Part shown: one piece after another, positions 13,345 through 14,042 of the stretch
How positions within the stretch are numbered: position 1 is the stretch's first letter
How the letters are laid out: each line of letters begins with the position of its first letter
Assembly (NCBI GenBank): GCA_040879165.1
Contig: JBBDKV010000028.1
Coordinates: 1-59,895, forward strand
Length of the DNA stretch: 59,895 bases
Direction of reading: 5' to 3'
Origin: Patescibacteria group bacterium
Lineage (GTDB): Bacteria > Patescibacteriota > Microgenomatia > UBA1400 > PJMF01
Made by a program: the position numbers and the translations under genes
Notes under the pieces: generated by a model
What the model was told of the DNA's origin: nothing
Seen by the model: only the letters and a program-made list of their open reading frames with translations
Databases searched by the model: none

Positions 13345-13540
13345 TGAGCCTGGTATCAAGTTTTCTTTATTATTGTGAATAGTTCAGTCTTGAAAAGATT
13401 TCTCATGTTACCATTTGGTGCGGAATTTTATGAGTCATGGATGGAATTGGATCCAGTCCTGGAGTGAGGAATTTGAGCGTGCCCTGCAGAGATTGTAACC
13501 TTGTGGGCTTGGTGGTAGAATTACCACGTTCTTTAATAGT

Positions 13541-13917
13541 TCCCCTGTAGCTCAATGGCAGAGCATCCGGCTGTAAAGATTGCAGCTTCCACCGGAAACG
13601 GTGAAATGATAATTGGGTGAATTGTCCCGCCTGACGGGATCTTCGCGTATTGCGAGGACGGGAAGCCTACGTCCACTTTGGTGGATATGGTGATCCGCAG
13701 CCAAGCTTTCTCATCAGTAACGGAGAGAAGGAAGGTTCAGAGACTAGGTGGTTACACCAACTGAGTTTGTCGGTAATTAATCAACGAACGCAGTAGCGCC
13801 CGACGCCTTCATTTGTTGCAAATGTAACAAAAAAGGTGATGAGATAGTCCATGCCTTATAGAAATATAAGGAGTTCGTGTAACCGGAGGGTTGTAGGTTC
13901 GAATCCTACCGGGGGAG
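13541..13917 (+). tRNA. trnN: tRNA-Asn(GUU) split by a group I intron; exons 13541-13574 and 13880-13917; CCA not encoded (CCT follows)
   Basis: Joining the exons gives TCCCCTG TA GCTC AATGGCA GAGC A TCCGG CTGT|TAA CCGGA GGGTT GTAGG TTCGAAT CCTAC CGGGGGA G. All four stems pair and the anticodon is GTT. Confidence 0.95.
13575..13879 (+). ncRNA. Group I intron (305 nt, no ORF) inserted between anticodon positions 35 and 36
   Basis: P1: exon GCUGU pairs with GCAGC with the U.G wobble at the splice site. P3 UUGGGUG/CGCCCGA. Q element AUCCGCAGC, R element UUCAGAGACUAG, S element GAGAUAGUCC. P9 CCUUAUA-GAAA-UAUAAGG. Terminal omega-G at 13879. Confidence 0.93.
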
Positions 13918-14042
13918 CCTCTACTATCCCTTAATACTTTTTCACAAGTTAAATCTGAATATAGTTTGCTAAAAAACTAAACCCTACTCATTCTAAATAT
14001 TCGCTATAATATTTCTTGAAGAAAGAATGATAGGATTTTTCA

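Follow-up and report, generated by a model that had tools for sequence, protein, structure and literature searches.

Two abutting hairpins inside the P4 helix of a group I intron that splits the sole tRNA-Asn gene of a Patescibacteria genome

The window considered here, the whole stretch of 59,895 nucleotides that was analysed, is contig C28 of a 1.13-Mb Patescibacteria genome in 29 contigs that is about 96% complete. A tRNA-Asn(GUU) gene occupies positions 13541-13919. ARAGORN in its default mode called no tRNA in the window, and the intron option was required for the gene to appear, as tRNA-Asn(gtt) i(35,305). The gene is split after U35 by an intron of 305 nt, which lies between U35 and U36 of the anticodon loop (loop position 4), at the junction of CUGU and UAA. 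The intron matches Rfam RF00028 over the full length of the model (positions 1-253) with 64.9 bits (E 3e-14; gathering threshold 50). The features of the gene are as follows.

13541-13574, plus strand: 5′ exon of tRNA-Asn(GUU), with U35 as its last base (ARAGORN; sequence; same exon/intron boundary in 20 orthologues)
13575-13879, plus strand: group I intron, 305 nt, with a terminal omega-G (Rfam RF00028; alignment with orthologues scoring 64-115 bits)
13589-603, plus strand: P2 with a GAAA loop, an element of the intron core
13623-13624, plus strand: proximal P4 5′ strand (U, G), immediately 5′ of the insert and predicted to pair with C-A of 13698-99 (homology to covarying positions)
13625-13639, plus strand: hairpin A, UCCCG-CCUGA-CGGGA, 5 bp (folds; homologous hairpins in other introns)
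13640-13658, plus strand: hairpin B, UCUUCGC-GUAUU-GCGAGGA, 7 bp with one U.G (folds; pairing kept among homologues)
13659-13664, plus strand: distal P4 5′ strand CGGG (13659-62) and J4/5 AA (13663-64) (joined to UG in orthologues; CGGG pairs with UCCG at 13694-97 in every fold)
13665-13691, plus strand: P5 hairpin (folds and alignment)
13694-13699, plus strand: P4 3′ strand UCCGCA, which would run unbroken through the proposed four-way junction (covaries with the 5′ strand across the 28 orthologues)
13747-58, plus strand: P7.1-like hairpin, an element of the intron core
Within 13575-13879, plus strand: the other intron elements, P3, P4-P6, P7, P8, and P9 with a GAAA loop
13880-13919, plus strand: 3′ exon of tRNA-Asn, from U36 and ending in GCC (ARAGORN; sequence)

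The splice sites have the expected form. P1 is made by GCUGU (13570-74) paired with the internal guide GCAGC (13582-86), which places a U35.G pair at the 5′ splice site, and the intron ends in ...UUCGUG before UAACCGG, with omega-G present; the U.G pair and the terminal omega-G are found likewise in 20 orthologues. Alignment with the orthologues shows the conserved core blocks to be intact. Among the 48 tRNA genes that ARAGORN finds in the genome, tRNA-Asn is present in a single copy. Because the intron interrupts this sole gene it almost certainly must splice, and with its core intact it may do so by itself. Joints skipping the 305 nt, seen in runs X3 and X4, were considered as spliced RNA and rejected; they are DNA from the intron-less tRNA-Asn genes of other organisms.

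Several smaller observations concern the tRNA genes and introns of this genome. At 13916-13919 the gene encodes GCC and then T, so that the DNA does not encode a complete 3′ CCA, and a CCA-adding enzyme would be needed. The tRNA set of the genome includes a tRNA-Ile(UAU) and an odd tRNA-Ser(ACU) call, and one tRNA-Thr call that wraps a contig end is probably an artefact. Three more matches to the group I intron model fall below threshold, at 27-33 bits (G000:C2:19661-19940, plus strand; G000:C13:132576-132735 and 134102-134278, both minus strand); these may represent degenerate introns or miniature ones, perhaps within rRNA genes.

Between the two parts of the P4 5′ strand lies a 34-nt insert. 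In the DNA, TG (13623-24) is followed by TCCCG-CCTGA-CGGGA (13625-39), TCTTCGC-GTATT-GCGAGGA (13640-58) and CGGGAA (13659-64), and AUCCGCA, in RNA letters, stands at 13693-99. The heptamer GACGGGA occurs twice, at 13633-39 and 13657-63. Folded alone, the insert forms two hairpins end to end with a dG of -15.8 kcal/mol (z = -3.0; 0.6% of mononucleotide shuffles fold as well), and both are retained in the minimum free energy (MFE) fold of the full intron. A reading made earlier from the sequence alone had described two perfect small hairpins. Two abutting hairpins are indeed predicted, but they are perfect only in the RNA sense, hairpin B containing one U.G wobble.

The position of the insert was fixed by comparison with homologous introns. 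When the gene was compared by BLAST with all 286 species genomes of the order, many tRNA-Asn genes split by an intron came to light; 20 were confirmed by Rfam (64-115 bits), all of them split at the same CUGU and UAA junction. In comparison with 20+ orthologues (BLAST, MAFFT), the intron core shows up to 74% identity over 216 core columns. When 17 orthologues were aligned, CGGGAA followed directly upon GGGUGAAYUG, and only the intron studied here had 34 extra bases between them. The flanks of 13625-13658 are thus contiguous in homologous tRNA-Asn introns, in agreement with the claim of the sequence-only reading that these 34 nt are extra. A pattern search found the insert-free arrangement, GAAYUG followed by CGGGAA with at most one extra base between, in 28 genomes of the order.

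In the insert-free orthologues P4 is U-G-C-G-G-G paired with U-C-C-G-C-A. The search pattern permitted 16 combinations at the four positions that make up pairs 2 and 3, and the pairing-compatible combinations alone were observed, two of the 16: UG-CGGG with CCGCA in 16 genomes, and UC-AGGG with CCUGA in 12. The pairs on either side of the insertion point, 2 and 3, therefore covary (G-C to C-G and C-G to A-U). Their joint change in the 28 orthologues places the insert within the P4 5′ strand, between the second and third base pairs. A loop-borne or junction-borne extension would leave the core helices uninterrupted, whereas here the insertion point falls between two covarying pairs and not in a loop; the interruption of P4 proposed from the sequence alone is thereby borne out. 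A single bulged base is found at the same P4 step in four of the 28 genomes, U in three and A in one (G115:C14:18462-18520, G208:C63:1293-1351, G212:C92:11981-12039 and G138:C17:5078-5136). Such a 1-nt bulge could be a deletion scar or a precursor of the module.

It is less easy to assign the two proximal pairs in the introns that bear inserts. UG and CA are invariant among all of them, and in nearest-neighbour MFE folds the 2-bp proximal P4, which would be the fourth arm of the junction, does not form; by homology to the covarying positions this arm is probably paired in the insert bearers as well. An alternative is that UG is unpaired from CA, P4 is cut to the 4-bp CGGG/UCCG, and the hairpins belong to an enlarged J3/4 in the P3/P4 junction. 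The MFE folds of every insert bearer leave UG and CA unpaired, as this alternative would have it, and the invariance of these bases means that nothing proves the pairs in the carriers themselves; moreover, the A-rich linker (AAA) of a related single-hairpin form, described below, resembles junction sequence. Nevertheless an enlarged J3/4 seems unlikely, since the homologous two positions are paired and covary in the 28 insert-free orthologues and the carriers retain exactly a pairing-competent UG...CA. A P4 of 4 bp including a G.U would be weak, and the zero linker bases at the sides of the module are predicted by a stacked junction rather than by a flexible joiner.

Inserts at the same site were sought with a pattern that anchored the conserved flanks and demanded 5-35 extra bases between them. 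Five loci were recovered from the species-genome collection and eight from metagenomes, and an even sample of 401 genomes of the phylum gave four further genomes, all from other classes. Within the family of 140 genomes the studied genome alone matches. Wherever the tRNA exons of a carrier fall on the fetched contig, the gene is tRNA-Asn(GUU) and the intron is at 35/36. A two-hairpin module of 30-35 nt occupies the identical site in 7-8 other distinct introns, from other Patescibacteria classes and from metagenomes (the full-length carriers are L037, L038, L039, L040, L043, L046 and L049; L050 repeats the insert of L049). The carriers are related, so that these counts are not counts of independent events. 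A second form at the same P4 step, AAA followed by one long hairpin, occurs in L041, in L047/48 and in an intron on two viral contigs. The IMG/VR contigs concerned (L055, 4300-4388, minus strand; L056, 4740-4828, minus strand) carry a group I intron whose P3-P6 core has the same sequence and which apparently lies outside any tRNA gene.

The architecture of the module is conserved, while much of its sequence is not. Each of the eight distinct full-length inserts, the studied one included, folds over its whole length into two adjoining hairpins, with 0-1 unpaired bases at their junction (z -2.4 to -5.0), an architecture given by only 1.9% of composition-matched shuffles. No linker bases separate hairpin A, hairpin B and distal P4 in seven of the eight. 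In hairpin B all seven pair positions vary among the homologues with pairing kept, and six of the seven show two-sided changes; the pair tables were taken from the MFE fold of each sequence, so that 100% pairing is partly by construction. Per-sequence folds were used because the MAFFT alignment of the insert bearers misregisters hairpin A and L049/L050. The sequence of hairpin A is much better conserved than that of hairpin B. The homologue of hairpin A in seven other distinct introns has the form UCC(C)(G)...(C)(G)GGA, L049 has CCCGCU/AGCGGG, and changes of the types UA/CG and CG/UA/GC still occur. The loop sequences of hairpins A and B show no conservation among the carriers. By eye, no compensating loss of another peripheral element is evident in the carriers; the GNRA loops of L2 and L9 and the P5 are as in non-carriers.

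These comparisons bear on the source of the insert. It had been proposed that a small palindromic mobile repeat had landed in the ribozyme core, that is, a recent arrival of an element of the REP or MITE type in the intron of this genome. In favour of such an event, no other carrier is seen in the family (140 genomes) or among the 28 genomes of the order that have the intron, and the repeated GACGGGA could resemble a target duplication. Like REP- and MITE-type repeats, the P4 module is short, GC-rich and hairpin-forming. Those repeats, however, are multi-copy and dispersed, whereas the module is single-copy and positionally homologous to modules in other introns: neither palindrome has a second copy in the window or in the whole 1.13-Mb genome at up to 2-3 mismatches. 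With the site-anchored pattern, all 13 of 13 collection matches are copies of the intron with a different hairpin sequence at the same site, and none is a near-identical sequence at an unrelated locus. Introns of other classes have the same architecture at the identical phosphodiester position, its sequence diverged and compensated, and the core of the studied intron groups with carriers from elsewhere. The GACGGGA repeat is explained by the likeness of the 3′ arm of hairpin A to the P4 strand, which most carriers share. The proposal of a mobile repeat is thus already largely refuted and must be considered very improbable. Since a module of different sequence occupies the identical site in related introns, and since the cores group together, the module came with the intron.

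The feature might instead be an artefact of assembly, or a sign of decay in an intron that no longer splices. The genome is metagenome-assembled, and the Rfam score of the intron is the lowest but one of its family (64.9 as against 80-115 bits), although the low score reflects the insert and need not, though it could, also point to some degeneration. A Logan contig, from an independent assembly that likely used the same reads, shows no differences over 13480-13960 at a depth of about 9. Another study supplies a contig of low depth that matches the upstream sequence at about 96% identity; from the same position it reads UCCCGC-CUUG-GCGGGA and then a different beginning of hairpin B, so that the start of the insert is common to this relative. 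With all the conserved core blocks intact in the only tRNA-Asn gene, error or decay is scarcely credible.

The descent of the module was followed in a maximum likelihood tree of 27 intron cores from which the insert columns had been removed. The studied intron falls in a clade (98/95) with the two-hairpin introns L037/38/40/46 and with L011/15/16, three introns of the same family that keep one extra U and are its closest insert-free relatives in the core tree. Holding the studied intron and the four insert bearers as one clade does as well as the unconstrained tree, or marginally better (lnL +0.6, AU p 0.57). The AU test does not reject a grouping of all two-hairpin introns in a single clade (p 0.105), or of both forms, two-hairpin and AAA plus one hairpin, in one (p 0.087). 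The deep nodes are weakly supported (52/81) and are compatible with one or two origins. The module is thus inherited together with the intron core, and the simplest history is that it arose once or twice in a mobile intron family and travelled with the intron, including into the studied lineage. On this history it was also lost at times, perhaps leaving a one-base bulge.

Mobility of the family is indicated by its coding content. An HNH endonuclease ORF of roughly 96 aa lies between P1 and P2 in L012, L017, L039 (6154-6444), L041, L046 and L047; that of L039 matches Pfam PF01844 with 28.1 bits. Because some members carry such an ORF, the tRNA-Asn intron family is regarded as mobile, and this mobility can explain the presence of the module-bearing form in different classes. 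A second length difference also varies within the family. A 36-nt P7.2-like hairpin at 13759-13794, flanked by the P7.1-like hairpin and the P3 3′ strand, has counterparts of varying sequence in some members only (L008/9, L010, L014, L020, L021 and L024). Together with the P4 module it makes up the excess of roughly 60 nt of the studied intron over its nearest relatives.

The most satisfactory account, and one that is probably correct, takes the 34 nt as a peripheral module inherited in one intron sub-lineage, built as a linker-less four-way junction within P4 and compatible with splicing. The module would leave the P4 5′ strand between the second and third base pairs, and the proximal P4 (2 bp), hairpin A, hairpin B and the distal P4 (4 bp) would meet as a four-way junction without linker bases. 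The two halves of P4 would stack along the uninterrupted 3′ strand, preserving the catalytic P5-P4-P6 column and the junction contacts, while hairpins A and B would stack on each other and be extruded beside the column. The intron would then still splice despite the insert. The insert has to be tolerated, since no tRNA-Asn gene other than the interrupted one is found in the genome. Toleration as a four-way junction, suggested before any comparison was made, suits the arrangement seen here, since two hairpins without linkers between four helices fit such a junction and the gene is the sole tRNA-Asn among 48 tRNAs.

The tight self-pairing of the hairpins in all carriers may have more than one cause. 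They could buttress the P4-P6 domain; alternatively, a looser insert would compete with P4, and the pairing would merely keep the insert out of the way. A stabilising role is a real though tentative possibility. A structurally neutral but constrained expansion at a permissive site is rated slightly above it, somewhat short of an even chance, because neither hairpin loop is conserved, which argues against a specific docking role; no obvious contact of the tetraloop-receptor type that would support a buttress is seen in the hairpin loops. Some other role is unlikely. The sequence-only reading had suggested that the insert may tune the splicing of an essential tRNA.

A regulatory role has also to be considered. 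The module may be a folding gate or switch, or a platform for a protein or ligand, in which the 5′ arm of hairpin A mimics the P4 3′ strand, its 3′ arm mimics the P4 5′ strand, and the module decides when P4 forms. The UCCCG of the 5′ arm might have two alternative partners, the 3′ arm of hairpin A and the CGGGA of P4, possibly in response to temperature, Mg2+, a protein or a ligand. In seven of the eight distinct carriers the 3′ arm of hairpin A repeats the P4 strand sequence ((C)GGGA or GGA), and both the greater conservation of hairpin A relative to B and the duplicated GACGGGA of the studied intron would be in keeping with a gate. If such a gate were true, maturation of the cell's only tRNA-Asn would be under conditional control, and the intron would hold a natural regulatory four-way junction inside a ribozyme core. 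The alternative pairing, however, is never the MFE, no conserved loop or bulge suggests a ligand pocket, and stability alone can conserve G-C rich pairs beside a junction. A regulatory gate thus appears quite improbable. The likeness of the arms of hairpin A to the strands of P4 and the repeated GACGGGA may go back to a local duplication from which the module arose; a folding switch is the less likely explanation.

The intron studied here belongs to the class of bacterial tRNA-Asn(GUU) 35/36 group I introns, which we take to be the class named 'Asn.4Ug'. The nomenclature rules given by Williams (bioRxiv 2020, doi 10.1101/2020.01.27.920355), namely loop position 4, U-1 and omega-G, fit it, and structure is not discussed in the available portion of the text of that preprint. 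Ordinary members of the class have the same host tRNA, insertion site and conserved core, with an HNH ORF in some, and an uninterrupted 6-bp P4; the studied intron and its small sub-lineage differ in carrying the 30-35-nt two-hairpin module in the P4 5′ strand. The Azoarcus tRNA-Ile and cyanobacterial tRNA-Leu IC3 introns are likewise small bacterial introns of tRNA anticodon loops, with GAAA loops on P2 and P9 and a P4'/P6/J6-7/P7 sequence very similar to that of the studied intron (…CCGCAGCCAAG… AAGGU.. AGAGACUA). In contrast, they have neither the P7.1-like hairpin nor the P4 insert, and they lie in different tRNAs at a different loop position.

The closest structural parallels are the P5abc extension of the Tetrahymena (IC1) intron and other lineage-specific peripheral extensions (P2.1, P7.1/P7.2 and P9.1), which like the P4 module are self-contained helical add-ons that related introns can do without. 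P5abc lies packed against P4-P6, and its A-rich bulge docks in the P4 minor groove. The P4 of Tetrahymena presumably also reads UGCGGG, and P5abc is assumed to make its contacts near the pairs homologous to the present insertion point. From this docking next to the insertion point, it seems sterically plausible that introns without P5abc could accommodate an add-on at the P4 face, and that such an add-on could act as a buttress. The parallel is incomplete. Extensions of the P5abc type arise from terminal loops or joining regions, whereas the P4 module leaves the middle of a strand of a core helix through a proposed four-way junction, and it is without an A-rich bulge or a conserved loop motif.

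Textbook descriptions of group I introns present a fixed catalytic core to which additions are made solely at loops and junctions. In the literature searched, neither an insertion within P4 nor this two-hairpin module was found to be described; the class of the host intron is known, and the P4-internal module appears to be undescribed. The sequence-only reading had considered that the hairpins might be common to a known subgroup of introns. They are indeed common to a subgroup, although no described subgroup with this feature was found.

The module carries a warning for annotation, in that inserts of this kind roughly halve covariance-model scores (65 as against 80-115 bits). In a compact form of 305 nt, the intron offers a natural test case for the way in which four-way junctions may be accommodated in a ribozyme core, for the replacement of P5abc-like buttressing by another peripheral domain, and for the engineering of ribozymes with insertion points within core helices. 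Between its second and third pairs P4 offers a permissive site, at which three solutions are seen: a 1-nt bulge, AAA with one hairpin, and two hairpins. In the studied lineage, a natural and evolutionarily maintained module leaves the middle of a P4 strand in an intron that is obliged to work.
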